A DNA stretch of 15,092 bases from UHGV virus genome UHGV-1737584; one strand, written 5' to 3'. A program made the translations under genes and the position numbers. Source of the DNA: a virus. Below are positions 4,207-15,092 of this stretch, piece after piece (position 1 is the stretch's first letter; every line of letters begins with the position of its first letter). The notes beneath the pieces were generated by a model. The model had not been told where the DNA came from. It was given only the letters and a program-made list of their open reading frames with translations, and did not search any database.

Positions 4207-4562
4207 AGCACCACGTCCTGTGTGATAGTTATATCCCTGATACGAATGGATATTTTCAACTTATCAAAAGCATCTCCCTCGGCTACTGACAAGCCAGAAA
4301 TCGGTATGTCAGGTAAATCTACCGTCAGTTTTTGCAACAGCATTGCCTCAACCGCAATTTGAACATGCGACAAGTTGGTCGGTTCGTGTTTAAACTGCGG
4401 TAAAACATTGCCCCATGACGGATCTCCGTATACCTCACCCTGATAAGTGTTTAGCCACTCATATAAACGAGCGCCCCAGGCCTCCTCCTGGGACTCATAC
4501 GTTTTTACGCCGGATAACTCCAGCGTCAGCAAAGGATCAATTTCGTTATTGTTGGCCATCAA
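4203..4562 (-). CDS. 119-aa small structural protein, possibly baseplate wedge (gp25/W-like size class)
   Basis: Complete ORF; start overlaps the stop of the Sit-like gene (4559-4562) and its stop overlaps the next start. Assignment by size and synteny only (P1 pmgA by position). Confidence 0.5.
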   Translation of the reverse strand: MMANNNEIDPLLTLELSGVKTYESQEEAWGARLYEWLNTYQGEVYGDPSWGNVLPQFKHEPTNLSHVQIAVEAMLLQKLTVDLPDIPISGLSVAEGDAFDKLKISIRIRDITITQDVVL

Positions 4563-7500
4563 TCAACTCTCGCGTAGTCATTCATCAACGGATCATCAAT
4601 TGACAGTGGTACCGTGCGCATAACGCCCGGCTGAGGCGTGCTGACCTTTACGACAGTTCCCTGGCCTTTCGCCGAGTCTTTGGTGTGCTCTTCAATCCTG
4701 GCAAGCAATGAGGTCATCTGCGCAAACAGCCGCTTCGTTTCACCATCAAGTGAAACGGTATTATCAGCCAACTGCATTGTCGGCTTGGCACCGGAGCCAC
4801 CAAGGTCACTAATAACCTGTCCGTCTATCTGCATACGACCGGTTGGTTGCTGCAAATCGTTGGCGGCAGTCGTCACCTGGGACGTGGAGGCTGGTTCAGG
4901 CGCATTATTTTTCCGCATCCCCGGCGAGTTGCGGAGTTTATCGAATAGTCCATCAATCCCCATTTGTGCGCCGAGCTGGTCAAAGTAACTTGAGTTGTTG
5001 GCCACCGGACGCGCTTCTTCAACTGGCATCGGGGTATCAACATACACATTACCAGCTGCTGTTGCGGTCCCCTTCCCTCGTGCACGTTCTTCTAGCGTTC
5101 CCTGAACGACTTCCCGACGCATCCCCCGGCCATTCATGAATTTGTTGACCAGATCGTTAACGCCAACAGCATTGCCGATTTTGTCGACCAGACCGCCTTT
5201 CTCAAACGGGCTATCACCAGGGGTAAACGCCAAGCCAGGGGTAAACGCCAAGCCAGGGGTAAACGCCAAGCCAGTATACTGATCGATAACGGCGTTATCA
5301 GGCAGTGGTCCCCTCACTCCATATTGCGCCCCACCCTGTGCTCCTGCCCCAGGTGTATAGATTTCACCACCTAAATAGCGAGCACGATGAGTATTGACCT
5401 TGATCGCGTACTCACGGTTTTCCTTCGATAAGTCACCGGTGCCTTTTTTCCACTTATTAATAGTGCCAAACCCAGCGTTATATGCAGTGATGGCCTCGTT
5501 TAAGTCTCCATTGGCTTGCTTCAGATACTTGCTCATGAGAAGAGCCGCAGCTTCTGCCGATTTCACAGGATCAAACGATTCACCTTCAGCTAAGCCAGTC
5601 TCTTCACGAGCAATGCCCGTGAACTGAAACATTCCTAGAGCACCAGTTTGGGATTTTGCGTATGGATTACCACCAGATTCAGTTGCAGCAATCGCGTAAA
5701 GAGTGCCTTCAGGAAGACCATATTTATTCTCTAGTTCAGCAAAATACGGAGCTAACTTATCGAGATTTGCCTTACCTTCAGCGCCAAGGCTTCCGACTTT
5801 TACATCTAAGTTGCCATTATTGTAGGTATCAGCAGCTTTCTGAATGTCATTCCCAGTGCCGGTGGTATTACGCGACGATGATGACGAGCTATTTTGACCA
5901 ATAGCTTTATCAATTTTCTGCAACGCGCGATTGCCCGTTTCTACGGCATTTGCATTGATAATCTGATTGGCAGTTTGTTTAACTGTTTTATTGCTATCTT
6001 TCGCTGTGTCCAGTGCCGCATTTATCACGCGGGTAGCAATATTACTCTGTTTGGCATCGGATTCAGTTTTAGAATTAGACGTCTCCTGGTGGCTATTAAC
6101 CGGAGCTTTTAACTCTGGAGTGATTTCTTTCGCATTAGCCTCGCCGATCGGATTGGGTATTTTTGATACAATCATTGCCGCAGGGGTATTTTTAACGGCA
6201 TCAACCGCTGCATCTAATGCTTTACCGGGTAAATTTTTAACCCCATCCCAAATATTACCAGCCGCCTCTTTAATGTGTTTCCCTGGGTTCTTAATGAAAT
6301 CAATTGCACTATCAATTGCATCACTGAAAACCTGTTTCAGGTTATCGACAGTAAAGAAGTCTTTGATGGCATCCAGCTTTTCAAGCAGCTTATTAGATGT
6401 ATCGCTAAACCATGCTGAAACAGCATCACCAATCTTTGCTGTGTAATCATCGAACTTGGTAGAAATCGTGTCGCCAAGGTTAGAAATATATGTTTCTAAG
6501 TTGGTAATCCCACTATCAATGGCCTGGGCAATACTTTCCGTCGAAAATGATTGCAACATATTGCCGATATCCTCAAATCCAAGTGATTTGAGAACCTCAC
6601 CAATGGCGCTGCTAATACCAGATACAAGCCCCCCCATATCAAGAACATTAGCTAACGTATAAGCGGCTTTTTGCTGGAATGATGGATCTTGTCCTGATTT
6701 AAGCCCAAACGCTCGACGTTGCGCTTCTGTATCATTCCAACCGGTTACCGCATCATAAATACCTCCAGCCACTGTGCCGACCAGGGGAATTGCGCGTAAC
6801 GCCCCTTTACCAACTGCCTTTAATCCAAGTTTACCTGCTGCCCGGGCAGCCAAATCTCCGCCTTCATGGGCGAGAGTCTTCTTGCCACCACCGCGTAGCA
6901 TTCCTACAAGTTTCTTTGCCCCCAGAGCGCCAAAAGCGAGTGCTCCAGCTTTTTTCAGCATGCCACGCCCCATTAACAACGACGCGACGCCACCGGCCCC
7001 CTTCCCTAACAGGCTAAATAATTTGGACAGCAAGCCGCCCTTCTTTTTCCCGGTGTTTTTGGCTATCTGATCAAGGGCGCTGAGAATCTTGTCATTGCCC
7101 TCTTTAATTTCGCTGGTCTGCTCCTGAAGTTCCTGAACCGTCCGTTTTTGGGTGTTAACCTGAACGACATCGGCACTATTTTGCGATTTACGCCTAAAAA
7201 AACCTTTTCTACGGCTGTTATCGTCATTGCCACGAATCACATCGGCAATAGACTTTCTGGCACCATTAAGCGATCCACCAACTTCTTTTGATATCCCGCC
7301 AAGCTCCTTCCCTGCGGCCCACAATGGACCAGCAACGGCATAACCTAACGCATCGACGGCACGAGTCTCTGAAGGGTTACCTATGCCTTCAGCTACTTTT
7401 GACAGTTTTTTTAATAAACCTGATTCAGCATTTAGACGCTCATCATCCTCTTTGCGCCTGTCCTTTTCAGCACGTTCAGCACGGGCATCTTCCGCTGCGG

Positions 7501-7987
7501 CCTTACTCCCTGACTTTCCAATAAAACGACCACGCGCATCGCGTTGGTTTTGGCTTTTTTGCGCACCGTCTTTTTGACCGAACATTTCGCGAGCGTGTTC
7601 GGCTGCTTCGGTCCGTTGCGCCTTTACATCTTCTGTTATAGCCTTCTTGCGTCGTTTTTTACCCTTTCGCGTAGTTGATTTGGCCTGCGGTTCCTGTAGA
7701 GCAACATCCTCCTGAACTACACGAGAAACGTCCCCTAAATTAAGCCGTTTCATTGCCTCAACAATAGGGTCCACTGATGGCGCATTGGCCACAAAGTCTG
7801 GCTGGGAATTTTCGATTGTGCGATTTAATGCCGACACACTGCGAGAGACAGGATCAACTGTAGCAACTCGCCCCCCTTTCAAATCTTCAACGGCTTCCCG
7901 AATACCTGCAAGCTCTTCCAGCTCTTTTGCGCTGGCGGTTTCAACCGTCCTTATCACATCGTCAATGTTGGCGTTTTTTCTTTCCAT
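4559..7987 (-). CDS. sit: Structural injection transglycosylase / tape-measure-like protein, 1142 aa, with soluble lytic transglycosylase (SLT) domain
   Basis: Longest ORF in window. Contains GLPEGTLYAIAATESGGNPYAKSQTGALGMFQFTGIARE (aa ~760-800), the family-1 lytic transglycosylase motif with catalytic Glu-Ser (Glu codon at complement 5678-5680). N-terminal part is K/R/E-rich, followed by a Gly/Ala-rich hydrophobic glycine-zipper segment (aa ~300-420). P1 Sit is about 1140 aa as I recall. Confidence 0.9.
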   Translation of the reverse strand: MERKNANIDDVIRTVETASAKELEELAGIREAVEDLKGGRVATVDPVSRSVSALNRTIENSQPDFVANAPSVDPIVEAMKRLNLGDVSRVVQEDVALQEPQAKSTTRKGKKRRKKAITEDVKAQRTEAAEHAREMFGQKDGAQKSQNQRDARGRFIGKSGSKAAAEDARAERAEKDRRKEDDERLNAESGLLKKLSKVAEGIGNPSETRAVDALGYAVAGPLWAAGKELGGISKEVGGSLNGARKSIADVIRGNDDNSRRKGFFRRKSQNSADVVQVNTQKRTVQELQEQTSEIKEGNDKILSALDQIAKNTGKKKGGLLSKLFSLLGKGAGGVASLLMGRGMLKKAGALAFGALGAKKLVGMLRGGGKKTLAHEGGDLAARAAGKLGLKAVGKGALRAIPLVGTVAGGIYDAVTGWNDTEAQRRAFGLKSGQDPSFQQKAAYTLANVLDMGGLVSGISSAIGEVLKSLGFEDIGNMLQSFSTESIAQAIDSGITNLETYISNLGDTISTKFDDYTAKIGDAVSAWFSDTSNKLLEKLDAIKDFFTVDNLKQVFSDAIDSAIDFIKNPGKHIKEAAGNIWDGVKNLPGKALDAAVDAVKNTPAAMIVSKIPNPIGEANAKEITPELKAPVNSHQETSNSKTESDAKQSNIATRVINAALDTAKDSNKTVKQTANQIINANAVETGNRALQKIDKAIGQNSSSSSSRNTTGTGNDIQKAADTYNNGNLDVKVGSLGAEGKANLDKLAPYFAELENKYGLPEGTLYAIAATESGGNPYAKSQTGALGMFQFTGIAREETGLAEGESFDPVKSAEAAALLMSKYLKQANGDLNEAITAYNAGFGTINKWKKGTGDLSKENREYAIKVNTHRARYLGGEIYTPGAGAQGGAQYGVRGPLPDNAVIDQYTGLAFTPGLAFTPGLAFTPGDSPFEKGGLVDKIGNAVGVNDLVNKFMNGRGMRREVVQGTLEERARGKGTATAAGNVYVDTPMPVEEARPVANNSSYFDQLGAQMGIDGLFDKLRNSPGMRKNNAPEPASTSQVTTAANDLQQPTGRMQIDGQVISDLGGSGAKPTMQLADNTVSLDGETKRLFAQMTSLLARIEEHTKDSAKGQGTVVKVSTPQPGVMRTVPLSIDDPLMNDYARVD
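5217..5274 (-). repeat. Perfect tandem repeat, 3.2 copies of an 18-bp unit (CCAGGGGTAAACGCCAAG), encoding (LAFTPG)x3 in the Sit-like protein
   Basis: Read directly: copies at 5217-5234, 5235-5252, 5253-5270 plus a partial CCAG. In frame; translates to TGLAFTPGLAFTPGLAFTPG just C-terminal of the SLT domain. Confidence 0.95.
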
Positions 7988-10233: not shown

Positions 10234-10773
10234 CTACCACCAACTGCTAGCTTTCTTCTCTCTAGCTTTTCCTTCGCTTTGCAGTAAATCTTTACTTCCT
10301 GTAGAAATATTTCTATTTGCATCAGCCTCAGACTGAATTACATCTGTCTTAGCTGCTCTCTCCTTCAACTCCTGCTCTATAAAATCGTTTTCTCGCTGGA
10401 CACGAGCCGCTTTTGCTTGCAGTTCGAGTTTCATGCTTTCGAGTTGCAGCTTGCGAAGCTCATCCTCATAAGCTTGATCTCGCTTCTTGTCATTTGCTAG
10501 CTCGGCTTCTCGTTTCGCTCTACGTTCATTTTCTGCAGCAACACGCTGTTTTTCGCGTGCAGCAGCGGCAGATGCTGCTTTTTCTCTTCTAATACGTTCA
10601 GCTTGTGCTTGTTGGCGAATAAGTTCTTTTCTGGCATCCTCAGCTTGCTGCTCTTTAGCTCGCCCTTCATTTTCCGCTTGAGCAATAGCAGCAATTTGAC
10701 TTTGCAACGAGTTAGCCAAGGCAGTGCCTACACTAAACGTAGAAAAGATTAGAAATAAAATAATTTTATTCAT
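10234..10773 (-). CDS. Exported (signal-peptide) coiled-coil protein, 179 aa, TolA-like charged helical repeats
   Basis: N-terminus MNKIILFLIFSTFSVGTALA is a classic Sec signal peptide. The mature part is a highly charged Ala/Glu/Arg/Lys/Gln-rich predicted coiled coil ending in SSWW. Lies in the P1 sim-locus position. Confidence 0.75.
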   Translation of the reverse strand: MNKIILFLIFSTFSVGTALANSLQSQIAAIAQAENEGRAKEQQAEDARKELIRQQAQAERIRREKAASAAAAREKQRVAAENERRAKREAELANDKKRDQAYEDELRKLQLESMKLELQAKAARVQRENDFIEQELKERAAKTDVIQSEADANRNISTGSKDLLQSEGKAREKKASSWW

Positions 10774-10776
10774 AAA

Positions 10777-11298
10777 TTATTTCTTTTCTGGACAAGTAGC
10801 ATTTGGCTGAATTCGAGTTTCATTATCTTTAGTTGAAATAAGCACAGCAAGCCCCGTTGTAAACTGGCATGCTTTACCAACTTGAGTTGAAGTGAACACC
10901 TTAGTTCCTTCTTTATAAGTCAGTGAAACACCTTCAACAATTGTTTTATCACTAACCAAAGAACCAGCCGCTGCACCAAGAGCCGCACCACCAGTACCGC
11001 CAGCTACAGCACCCAGTGTCGATGTGCCTTTAACATTATAACCGGCAACGCCCCCAGCAACAGCTCCCAGTACCGCACCAAATGTCTGTGCCGCTTCTTT
11101 ATTAGCTTTATTATCAACTTTCACTTTAGCTGGAAGCACAGAGATAATATTGACTGTCTTTGTTTCCTGCTTCGAATTCAATTGAGCGGTATCATAAACA
11201 TCGGCAGCATAATCAGCACCGCTAGATTGACACCCAGAAAGAAGAATTGCAGATACAACAAGAGCGCATAAAGTATACTTTTTAGACATAAGAATCAT
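10777..11298 (-). CDS. Lipoprotein with glycine-zipper segment, 173 aa (or 170 aa from the second ATG at complement 11287-11289)
   Basis: Lipobox LLSGC after a KK-containing hydrophobic leader (MSKKYTLCALVVSAILLSGC). Central GAVLGAVAGGVAGY...GAVAGGTGGAALGAAAGS glycine zipper, typical of SlyB/PCP-like outer-membrane lipoproteins. Two C-terminal Cys. Only 3 bp separate it from the downstream gene. Confidence 0.8.
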   Translation of the reverse strand: MILMSKKYTLCALVVSAILLSGCQSSGADYAADVYDTAQLNSKQETKTVNIISVLPAKVKVDNKANKEAAQTFGAVLGAVAGGVAGYNVKGTSTLGAVAGGTGGAALGAAAGSLVSDKTIVEGVSLTYKEGTKVFTSTQVGKACQFTTGLAVLISTKDNETRIQPNATCPEKK

Positions 11299-11565
11299 CC
11301 CGGAAAAACAAAAACCGGCGAGAAGTTACCACGAGAACGGAAAGTAAACAAGAATACTCCCATTGACTTATATCAATTAATCAACTTTTTATAAGCTATC
11401 ACTAACTTATTGTGTATAGCTGAAAAGTCAGAGACAAGTTCACCATCTGCATTATTTCTTAAGTTAATAGTTTATTGCTAACTTAATTCATGTATCGACT
11501 ATTGATAGCCATCTTAAAGTTACAATATCCCTCTGCATTATTTTTCATCACAAATAATATATCTA

Positions 11566-11596
11566 TTGCACGACACTCATCTGCTCTAATAAATTT
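11566..11596 (+). promoter_or_regulatory. Sigma70-like promoter (TTGCAC-17-ATAAAT) overlapped by a C1-operator-like site (ATCTGCTCTAATAAATTT)
   Basis: -35 at 11566-11571, -10 at 11589-11594. The 15-mer TGCTCTAATAAATTT at 11582-11596 matches the P1 C1 operator consensus ATTGCTCTAATAAATTT as I remember it (15/17) and recurs at 13253-13267. Confidence 0.6.
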
Positions 11597-13267: not shown

Positions 13268-13336
13268 CGTTTTCTAAGTGCAAAGAATCACCATTTCGAG
13301 CTGGTGATTGAAGGTTGATGCAAATTTGGAGAAAAA

Positions 13337-14137
13337 ATGCAACAAACATTCAATGCGGATATGAATATATCAAACCTTCATCAAAATGTCGATCCTTCAA
13401 CCACTCTGCCCGTTATTTGTGGTGTTGAAATTACGACCGACCGCGCTGGCCGTTACAACCTTAATGCTCTACACAGAGCGAGCGGACTCGGTGCCCATAA
13501 AGCGCCAGCTCAATGGCTAAGAACGCTGTCAGCCAAACAGCTCATCGAAGAGCTTGAAAAAGAAACTATGCAGAATTGCATAGTTTCGTTCGAAGGCCGT
13601 GGCGGCGGCACTTTTGCCCATGAATTGCTCGCAGTGGAGTACGCAGGCTGGATTTCTCCCGCGTTTCGGCTGAAGGTAAACCAGACATTTATCGACTATC
13701 GAGCCGGAAGATTACAACCTGCTATTCCGAAGAGCCTCCCAGAAGCTCTCCGTTTGGCTGCTGACCTGGCAGAGCAAAAGCAACGGCTGGAGCAAAAAAT
13801 GCTGATGGATGCACCTAAAGTCGAATTCGCCGAACGCGTTGCTACCGCCAGCGGGGTTCTAATCGGCAACTATGCCAAAGTGCTCGGCCTGGGCCAAAAC
13901 TATCTCTTCACCTGGTTGCGTGATAACGGAATTCTGATCGCAACCGGTGAACGCAGGAACGTCCCCAAACAAGAATACATATCCCGTGGGTATTTCACCC
14001 TTAAAGAAACCGTGATCGATACAAGCAATGGAAGCAGGATTTCTTTCACGACTCGTATAACCGGCAAAGGTCAGCAGTGGCTGATGAAGCGATTGCTTGA
14101 TGCTGGTGTGCTGGTACCTGTCGCGGCAACGCGCTAA
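13337..14137 (+). CDS. kilA: KilA protein, 266 aa: N-terminal KilA-N domain plus C-terminal ANT-type domain
   Basis: SD GGAG 7 nt upstream. N-terminal region (ICGVEITTDRAGRYNLNALHRASG...) has the KilA-N DNA-binding-domain character. C-terminal ~130 aa are paralogous to Ant. The 266-aa length matches P1 KilA as I recall. Confidence 0.8.
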   Translation: MQQTFNADMNISNLHQNVDPSTTLPVICGVEITTDRAGRYNLNALHRASGLGAHKAPAQWLRTLSAKQLIEELEKETMQNCIVSFEGRGGGTFAHELLAVEYAGWISPAFRLKVNQTFIDYRAGRLQPAIPKSLPEALRLAADLAEQKQRLEQKMLMDAPKVEFAERVATASGVLIGNYAKVLGLGQNYLFTWLRDNGILIATGERRNVPKQEYISRGYFTLKETVIDTSNGSRISFTTRITGKGQQWLMKRLLDAGVLVPVAATR

Positions 14138-14166
14138 CAGACGTAGTAAGAACCACCAGCATTGTA

Positions 14167-15012
14167 ATGCTGGCTAAAGTCACTTTCCTGAGCTGTATAA
14201 CGATGAGCGATTTTACTTTTTCTGGCTATGAATTGGCCTGCTTTGTAACACACTCCGGTCTATCCCGTAGCGCCGGGCATATCCTGTCGCAATGTGCAAA
14301 TCTAGCGGCAACAACCAGTGAATACTTCATTCACAAGCCTCACCGCCTGATCGCGGCAGAAACTGGTTATAGCCAATCAACCGTCGTTCGTGCATTCCGT
14401 GAAGCTGTAAACAAAGGAATTCTGTCTGTAGAGATTGTTATCGGCGATCACCGTGAACGTCGCGCTAACCTGTACCGGTTTACACCATCCTTTTTGGCCT
14501 TTGCTCAACAAGCCAAAAATGCGCTAATTGAAAGCAAATTAAAGATCTCTTCAGCCGCAACCAAGGTTAAAGCAGTTCTCGCTAAGACATTGGCTTTATT
14601 TGATTTTTTATCCACACCCCCATGTCAAAATGATACCCCCTCCCCCTGTCAGGATGACGTGGCAATAAAGAATAAGAAGTCACAAATTAAAAAAACAAAA
14701 AGATCAGTTTCCGGCGGTGCCGAAACGACCAGCCTCAAAAAACTGACTTCATGGATCGCCGAGGCAAAAGCAAAGGCTGACAATCTGCGGTTATCCAAAA
14801 AACGCGCTCAAAAACATGAGTTCAAGCAGAAAGTAGAGGCGGCAGCGCGGAAATATGCTTACCTGAAGAACAAGCGTTCTCCTGATATTGGCGGGGTATC
14901 AAACTTCGATAATTTGCCGCATTGCATGACGGTAAACGAAGCTCTTAATGCGGTTTTAGCCAAAAATAAAGATAACGAACAATGGGGTATACCGGCAGGA
15001 TTCAGAGGGTGA
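14167..15012 (+). CDS. repL: Lytic replicon protein RepL-like, 281 aa, with HTH-like segment
   Basis: ORF immediately after kilA. Segment LIAAETGYSQSTVVRAFREAVNKGIL looks like a helix-turn-helix. Contains an internal short direct repeat and an A-rich tract. The 281-aa length matches P1 RepL as I recall. No clear SD at 14167; an in-frame alternative ATG lies at 14203. Confidence 0.7.
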   Translation: MLAKVTFLSCITMSDFTFSGYELACFVTHSGLSRSAGHILSQCANLAATTSEYFIHKPHRLIAAETGYSQSTVVRAFREAVNKGILSVEIVIGDHRERRANLYRFTPSFLAFAQQAKNALIESKLKISSAATKVKAVLAKTLALFDFLSTPPCQNDTPSPCQDDVAIKNKKSQIKKTKRSVSGGAETTSLKKLTSWIAEAKAKADNLRLSKKRAQKHEFKQKVEAAARKYAYLKNKRSPDIGGVSNFDNLPHCMTVNEALNAVLAKNKDNEQWGIPAGFRG

Positions 15013-15092
15013 TAGATTGCTCTAATCTGGAGTCACCTGGCGTTTTCAGTTTGAGGTCGGAGATGCAATCTGATTTTTTACAGTTAGCGATC

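Follow-up and report, generated by a model that had tools for sequence, protein, structure and literature searches.

The 15,092-nucleotide stretch of viral genome UHGV-1737584 analysed here (the window) belongs to a P1-type phage (Punavirus) and ends with the kilA and repL genes, the latter coding for the lytic replication initiator. The segment 13300–15092, including kilA–repL, shares 98% to 99% DNA identity with P1, P7, and many P1-like phage-plasmids, and the window repL differs from that of P1 at 22 of 846 nucleotides (98% DNA identity). Homologs of RepL carry the precomputed Pfam family PF26868 (Phage_P1_RepL), and a local Pfam scan of the window protein returned no family at E <= 0.001. 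Since 1989, the lytic origin of P1, oriL, has been assigned to some place within repL. In the curated P1 record AF234172, the entire repL coding sequence (CDS) is described as the 'region containing origin of lytic replication oriL', and a finer map is not given. A first-pass annotation of the window had proposed that two imperfect direct repeats and an A-rich stretch at 14611–14710 constitute this cis-acting site. From the analysis reported below, positions 14608–14723 are probably the core of a P1-type oriL, written into the codons of a disordered linker of the initiator itself, and we infer that the repeats are the part recognised by RepL.

The repeats, first described at about 14616–14657, are indeed present and lie together with the A-rich tract inside the open reading frame (ORF) of repL (Table 1). 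Their consensus of about 16–17 bp consists of a C-run followed by TGTCA(A/G)(A/G)ATGA, the two TGTCA cores sharing a codon phase and lying 24 nt from each other, and a C5-T-C5 tract starting at 14636 precedes copy 2. The A-rich tract begins 7 nt after copy 2 (six bases between) and is longer than the 14680–14710 originally given. It corresponds to the element named AT2 in P1, and is the most A-rich 43-mer on either strand of the whole 15-kb window. Its duplex stability is the lowest in repL and the fourth lowest in the window (z = 3.0), and the cumulative GC skew of the region is lowest at ~14650–14800. The least stable and most A/T-rich DNA of the window is found elsewhere, at 10740–11570 (z up to 4.4), approximately the sim/c4 immunity region by co-linearity with P1; as this region is far less stable than AT2, low duplex stability alone is no origin marker. 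Comparison with P1 revealed that the repeat block (14608–14663) is identical, and that AT2 matches at 42 of 43 nucleotides, the sole difference being an A at 14686 where P1 has G (Val to Ile).

The RepL-driven origin within repL has been mapped experimentally in P1 by Huan, Brown and Wang (Front Microbiol 2023; PMC9948254). In that study, 11 synonymous substitutions in AT2 cut RepL-driven amplification by a factor of 6.8 to 10.7 in cis and left none in trans, while mutating AT1/IHF or either DnaA box had no significant effect. When repL fragments were assayed in trans, T2, T4 and T5 each matched full-length non-coding repL in activity (~43-fold amplification), and T1 and T3, both devoid of AT2, were ~22-fold lower (PMC9948254). 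RepL supplied in trans from the recoded repL-AT2 allele, with the same 11 synonymous changes and intact repeats, was still active. The authors named the 13-mer-like motif of AT2 and pointed out the C/G-rich sequence ahead of it, without deciding whether RepL binds there or at AT2, and raising H-NS and Fis as further candidates (PMC9948254). According to the older P1 work as far as it is summarised in that paper, transcription of repL is essential for lytic replication.

We rebuilt the boundaries of T1 to T5 from the published primer table (Supplementary Table 3, nc-repL T5-r / T5-f; PMC9948254). The 87-bp T5 holds copy 2, of which the core is TGTCAGGATGA, the C5TC5 run and AT2, and contains neither copy 1 nor a DnaA box; hence, the repeat pair as a pair is not required in the plasmid assay. 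The window matches P1 at 85 of the 87 positions of T5, with G-to-A differences at 14686 and 14723. The interval first proposed therefore overlaps nearly fully with the published core, but the functional fragment reaches ~14723 and dispenses with copy 1. The RepL-dependent replication that has been shown is that of the near-identical P1 sequence. A search of one literature collection returned no later paper mapping a RepL site or treating the repeats.

Table 1. Features of the kilA–repL region, in window coordinates, with sites and trans-assayed fragments of the P1 study (PMC9948254) transferred to the window.
Feature	Position	Strand	Remarks
kilA	13337–14137		KilA-N and ANT domains; followed by the repL ORF
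repL, lytic replication initiator gene hosting oriL	14167–15012	+	281 codons; from ORF list, translation and P1/P7 identity
AT1 / predicted IHF site of the P1 literature	14581–14604	.	repL nt 415–438 (PMC9948254 Supplementary Fig. 1)
Perfect DnaA box TTATCCACA ('DnaA 1')	14608–14616	+	Abuts copy 1; dispensable in plasmid assay; published as repL nt 441–450 (14607–14616)
repL codons 149–188, predicted disordered linker hosting the origin	14611–14730	+	AlphaFold2
Direct repeat copy 1, CCCCCATGTCAAAATGA	14617–14633	+	C-run and TGTCA core; candidate initiator-recognition element
Direct repeat copy 2, CCCCCTGTCAGGATGA	14642–14657	+	Candidate initiator-recognition element; inside T5
T5 equivalent ('T5 nc-repL'), minimal trans-active fragment	14637–14723	.	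87 bp; rebuilt from primers
A-rich tract, AT2; probable DNA-unwinding element of oriL	14664–14706	.	81% A+T, 67% A; repL nt 498–540 (43 bp)
13-mer-like motif GATCTTTTTGTTT at the 3' end of AT2	14693–14705	-	Dam site GATC at 14702–14705
DnaA box TTATCCAAA ('DnaA 2')	14791–14799	+	Dispensable; outside T2/T4/T5; repL nt 625–633
Fragment T1	~14170–14473		
Fragment T2	~14472–14742		
Fragment T3	14743–end		
Fragment T4	14581–14742		
Fragment T5	~14637–14723		5' edge ...gaattc/cccctccccctgtcagg...; 3' edge ...aagatcagtttccggcggtgccgg

The significance of the repeats derives only from their conservation, whose absence the first-pass annotation had named as one of the things that would refute its proposal, and which was found at the DNA level in three RepL clades. 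A large protein database contains RepL relatives at 45% to 50% identity, and in their protein alignment PPCQN(D/E)xPSPCQ(N/D)D...KNK(K/R) is among the best conserved stretches outside the N-terminal domain. A codon alignment with the DNA of five lineages of the 47–50% identical clade and one Vibrio plasmid copy revealed that third positions are frozen too, the pattern being CCC CC(A/C) TGT CAA A(A/G)T GA. ... CCC TCC CC(C/T) (T/A)GT CA(G/A) (G/A)AT GAC ... AAG AAT AAG ... ACA AAA. Where P1 and this clade carry identical residues, the same codon is used in 76% to 84% of columns at amino acids 150–179 vs 30% to 43% elsewhere (per-pair Fisher p from 1e-5 to 0.02). Across six lineages, 10 of the 14 degenerate columns with an invariant amino acid are codon-invariant within the segment; outside it, 13 of 90 are (p = 2.5e-5). 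Codon bias is not the cause, since CCC, the frozen codon for Pro, is used less often than any other Pro codon in the window genes (12%). In the divergent clade, a 5-codon gap removes DnaA box 1, and the AT1/IHF site is partly deleted. The AGATCA end of the AT2 motif is kept in P1, phage D6, a Shigella D6-like gene and lineages L003/L004 of the divergent clade; L006/L008 keep the GATC as AGATCT, and L005/L007/L009 lack it. Among 58 unique P1-type repL sequences, taken from viral contigs and nearly all from P1 relatives more than 93% identical, no polymorphism occurs in 14647–14676, and copy 2 varies only at 14642, through a 1-nt deletion in one sequence. The window sequence, included in this set, is the only one with A at 14686, the others having G or T; this base lies inside AT2 and slightly raises its A content.

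Several observations were made on the divergent clade beside its conservation. In L007 (P0013; Logan SRR27489453; repL at 1776–2603), exactly one repeat copy, copy 1, has been deleted (8 codons), the outcome expected of slippage or recombination between direct repeats. An Icd-like gene and a small ORF lie upstream of repL in place of kilA. L095 and L176 (IMG/VR and JGI contig, 89,859 bp), which are the same lineage as L003, carry at ~2300–2490, after the repL stop, a partial second repL C-terminal fragment (MTNQERHQQRDGIERQARKYAYLTHRRDNDLPG...) from a different lineage; it resembles a recombination scar and hints that repL 3' halves have been exchanged between lineages. Scans of genome contigs and of metagenome contigs returned two loci each and no new lineage, and a tblastn search of plasmids with the divergent protein gained only Enterobacter and Vibrio records.

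With regard to phage D6, whose RepL shares 25% identity with that of P1, the gene contains at the co-linear position AACCCCCTGTTCAAATTGAAC AAGT CCCCCCATGTTCAAAATGAAC AGC CAATAGAAAATAAGAGTCAC...AAAGAAGAGAAAGATCA. A distance of 25 nt separates the two D6 cores, which occupy codon phases 2 and 3 and encode PLFKLN vs PHVQNE; since the copies stand in different frames, the repeat is one of DNA and not of peptide. When no motif was specified beforehand, the best local DNA alignment between the whole window repL and D6 repL joined 14616–14706 to positions 473–567 of the D6 ORF (z = 4.0, reached by 2 of 300 codon shuffles). Between D6 and the Shigella D6-like gene (65% identical), identical residues share their codon at 20 of 20 positions in this segment vs 86 of 161 elsewhere (p = 1.3e-5).

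A profile search revealed a third clade, the Pantoea-type, about 30% identical to P1 RepL and with 50% to 89% identity among its members. Seven Pantoea-type lineages share the invariant pattern ACC CCC CGA TCA ... CC. GAT CA. ... GAT CGA CAA ... TTA GTA T.T TTT GA..AT AAG AA. TCA AAA, that is, a C-run and then GATCA twice, 23 nt apart and in codon phases 2 and 1 (PRS vs PDQ), with two to three GATC sites and, after them, an A/T-rich block. At amino acids 155–192, 13 of 16 degenerate columns with an invariant residue are codon-invariant vs 4 of 87 outside (p = 1e-10), and a location-agnostic scan was equalled in none of 2000 trials. CGA, the Arg codon that is invariant here, accounts for 8% of Arg codons in the remainder of those genes. 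Local DNA alignment of P1-type with Pantoea-type repL was not significant, because the Pantoea-type core is GATCA and not TGTCA. In the surroundings of repL, the loci of this clade (L180–L184) harbour a ProQ/FinO-family gene on the 3' side and, on the 5' side, a small ORF with a weak Pfam match to Acb2/Tad1-hairpin (anti-CBASS/Thoeris sponge), and a Rep_3 plasmid initiator lies nearby in several contigs.

Taken together, P1 with its 47–50% identical relatives, D6, and the Pantoea-type genes all possess two repeats made of a C-run and TGTCA, TGTTCA or GATCA, 23–25 nt apart and upstream of an A-rich block. A regular expression for this motif matches inside repL alone in every lineage, and nowhere else in the window or in nt 1–50000 of P1 (0.005 expected). 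Judged from these sequences, purifying selection acts at the DNA level on both the repeats and the A-rich block in three RepL clades.

The selected DNA coincides with a particular part of the protein. An AlphaFold2 model computed on an 11-sequence RepL alignment predicts an N-terminal domain with a winged helix, extending to ~149, with a predicted local distance difference test (pLDDT) value of ~80–88 (residues 20–90 and 100–140) and a dip below 50 at 93–98. It is followed by residues 149–188 with pLDDT <50 and no secondary structure, and by a long helix at residues 188–234, C-terminal of this linker. The linker codons span both the interval of the first-pass annotation and T5. The nearest structures found by Foldseek for the N-domain are MarR-type winged-helix regulators, with weak scores (E ~ 6e-4, TM ~0.4). 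A zinc-binding role for the cysteines (PPC...SPC) was ruled out, as they are not conserved: L003 has Ser in place of the second, and this segment of D6 is devoid of Cys. Single-stranded DNA folding of 14600–14730 was not better than shuffles for either strand (z = -0.9 and -0.3), and an Rfam scan of 13300–15092 at E <= 1 gave no match. A hairpin-type origin was accordingly rejected, there being no significant fold on either strand, and so was a rolling-circle origin or a Firmicute plasmid RepL (Rep_L, pSN2 type), in view of the missing stable hairpin and Pfam match. Little speaks for a G-quadruplex or an R-loop at the C-rich strand: the minus strand of the region has only three G5 runs, the RNA would be C-rich, which is unfavourable for R-loops, and T5 is active without a promoter.

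In the model we propose, RepL would recognise the repeat(s) via its N-terminal winged-helix domain, one copy being enough when RepL is abundant, and would promote opening of the adjoining AT2. The host or phage replisome would then be loaded at the opened tract, and theta replication would start. Binding to the repeats, melting at AT2 and helicase loading at this place are steps that we infer; the experimental anchor is the near-identical P1 sequence, in which AT2 is required in cis and in trans and the 87-bp fragment with copy 2 and AT2 is sufficient in trans (PMC9948254). Overexpressed RepL works without copy 1, and L007 has a single copy, so that the two copies may serve cooperativity at natural RepL levels rather than an essential role. 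The cores (TGTCA, TGTTCA, GATCA) change with the initiator while the hosts stay enterobacterial, which speaks for a reader specific to the element rather than a host factor common to all, although this co-change rests on three or four clades only. There is about an even chance that the proposal holds more widely, namely, that the repeats are RepL recognition sites and that the whole PF26868 family carries two initiator sites and an A-rich unwinding block on its linker codons, convergent with lambda O/ori-lambda, with cores defining orthogonal initiator/origin pairs.

A number of points weigh against this model. Winged-helix proteins of the MarR type usually act as dimers on palindromes, and not on direct repeats. 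The support for the repeats as putative cis-acting or RepL sites is comparative. Copy 1, being outside T5, is dispensable in the trans assay, and the natural variant L007 keeps one copy only. The published assay relied on overexpressed RepL and reporter plasmids rather than phage DNA, and the T5 boundaries derive from machine-read primer text containing errors. The location-agnostic scan of P1 with the divergent clade peaks at amino acid 149, with p = 0.07 only, and the dip in polymorphism in the P1-type population is modest, the N-terminal half of the gene being about as quiet. The motif expression was composed after the sequences had been seen, and weight was therefore put on the local alignment and the location-agnostic scan. 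Lastly, the repeat pair has a score of 12 in banded self-alignment, which is equalled by 23% of repL ORFs after codon shuffling and by 20% after mononucleotide shuffling, and ~20 other loci in the window match or beat it.

The pair by itself was consequently discarded as evidence, shuffled ORFs doing as well in 20–23% of cases. This frequency of equally good nearby repeats would suit a chance resemblance without function, yet the position, spacing and sequence of the repeats are kept across three clades, down to 25% protein identity; judged by this comparison, the conservation has already refuted chance, to which we assign a negligible probability. The repeats might also be present only because the RepL protein needs a conserved peptide repeat (PPCQND / SPCQDD), and have no role as DNA. 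PPCQN(D/E)xPSPCQ(N/D)D is near-invariant between P1 and the 47–50% clade, where both copies are in the same frame. However, the synonymous positions of the repeats are frozen on rare codons, the D6 and Pantoea-type genes keep the DNA repeat with different peptides and frames, the Cys of the peptide repeat is replaced or missing in L003 and D6, and the segment is predicted to be disordered. The allele recoded at 11 synonymous positions of the linker A-tract, with unaltered repeats, moreover still gives active RepL in trans (PMC9948254). The peptide explanation is thus already largely refuted, and only a very small chance is left to it.

Synonymous constraint alone cannot tell DNA from RNA function, and the conservation could reflect an element of the repL mRNA, such as a structure, a Pro-Pro ribosome pause or an autoregulatory site, instead of a DNA origin; the essential transcription of repL reported in older P1 work, as far as PMC9948254 summarises it, would agree with that. 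Neither Rfam nor folding of either strand gave any sign of such a structure, T5 is active in trans as a promoterless, non-coding insert (PMC9948254), and the frame differences between clades rule out a Pro-Pro pause, so that an RNA-level function appears scarcely credible. More weight, though still of an unlikely alternative, is due to the idea that only the A-rich tract is the cis element, and that the C-rich repeats serve a host factor or a structure (a GC 'clamp', a DnaA/IHF/Fis/H-NS-type site, or a transcription-linked priming or pause signal). AT2 mutations by themselves abolish activity, and the authors of the P1 study could not separate RepL binding at AT2 from binding ahead of it, with H-NS and Fis as other candidates (PMC9948254). 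A perfect DnaA box adjoins copy 1, the steep step from C-rich to A-rich composition is conserved, and the GATC sites in the Pantoea-type repeats suggest an involvement of Dam/SeqA. Against a host factor, the core varies by clade with the initiator though all hosts are enterobacteria, a pattern better matched by a protein specific to the element, and neither the DnaA nor the IHF sites are needed (PMC9948254). A GC clamp alone, for its part, would need neither conserved TGTCA(A/G)(A/G)ATGA positions nor a fixed 23–25-nt spacing.

The origin model with RepL as reader of the repeats can be set beside known systems. The window element and P1 oriL are the same element, with repL at 98% DNA identity, an identical repeat block, AT2 one base off and the same kilA–repL operon context: the window has a repL ortholog 3' of kilA, an AT2 with GATCTTTTTGTTT, and a T5 equivalent. 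It represents a natural variant, with G-to-A changes at 14686 and 14723, and departs from reference P1 after ~15026. In the latter phage, the published work does not analyse the repeats or their conservation. The ori of phage lambda lies inside gene O, with four ~19-bp iterons and an A/T-rich region in the part coding for the interdomain linker. The likeness to lambda ori/O is threefold: an origin inside the initiator gene, direct repeats beside an A/T-rich region, and a linker between N-terminal DNA-binding and C-terminal domains, the repeats and AT2 occupying codons 149–188 (pLDDT <50) between folded domains. By contrast, there are two ~16–17-bp repeats here instead of four iterons, RepL binding is putative, and RepL shows no detectable relation to lambda O (Phage_rep_O), no Pfam family being found at E <= 0.001. 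Lambda ori would thus be the closest architectural analogue, by a functional and architectural likeness and not by membership.

Iteron-type theta origins (P1 oriR/RepA, F/RepE, pSC101, R6K; Rep_3) resemble the element in their direct repeats about 2.2–2.4 helical turns apart, and in an adjacent A/T-rich DNA-unwinding element (DUE) with GATC and a 13-mer-like motif, a DnaA box being near. However, only two copies occur in every clade (one in L007) rather than an array of three or more, and the initiator is of PF26868, with one predicted winged helix and a long helix, and not a Rep_3 or two-winged-helix protein. Furthermore, the DnaA box is not needed and is missing from the sister clade, and the origin lies inside the gene, not beside it. 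As for the DUE of E. coli oriC (13-mers, GATCTnTTnTTTT), AT2 likewise has the lowest duplex stability in repL and terminates in GATCTTTTTGTTT (minus strand), but has one 13-mer-like copy instead of three and is DnaA-independent in the plasmid assay.

While oriL as an element was already known, the conservation of the repeats as DNA, their independence of frame and their coincidence with the linker are new. The comparison narrows DNA-level selection to the C-run/TGTCA repeats beside the experimentally required AT2, and this constitutes a specific, testable prediction for RepL binding. For RepL-based copy-number amplifiers, P1 phagemids and P1-derived artificial chromosome (PAC) vectors, recoding of repL must spare or deliberately target about 14617–14723. 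The D6-type or Pantoea-type initiator/origin pairs may be orthogonal and, if this is true, could provide portable, inducible amplification modules of about 90 bp.

Some further observations concern the neighbourhood of repL and the rest of the window. Alignment to P1, P7 and several relatives stops at ~15026, whereas MH422554, MH445380 and others reach the end of the window (~15027–15092); the segment just 3' of repL, where P1 has the Op55 / rlf promoter region, exists in a variant form in the window phage. In Salmonella phage SJ46 (L012), a second CDS 3' of repL (1739–2254) is annotated 'replication protein RepL', and sits where P1 has rlfA, probably an annotation carry-over. At 5217–5274, within a minus-strand ORF of 1142 codons (4559–7987; sit homolog), a perfect 18-nt tandem repeat, CCAGGGGTAAACGCCAAG, is present 3.2 times, in a region of weaker periodic self-similarity (~5156–5524, with scores of up to 40 in banded self-alignment). 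The Sit tape-measure/transglycosylase protein probably contains a 6-residue repeat unit encoded by it.

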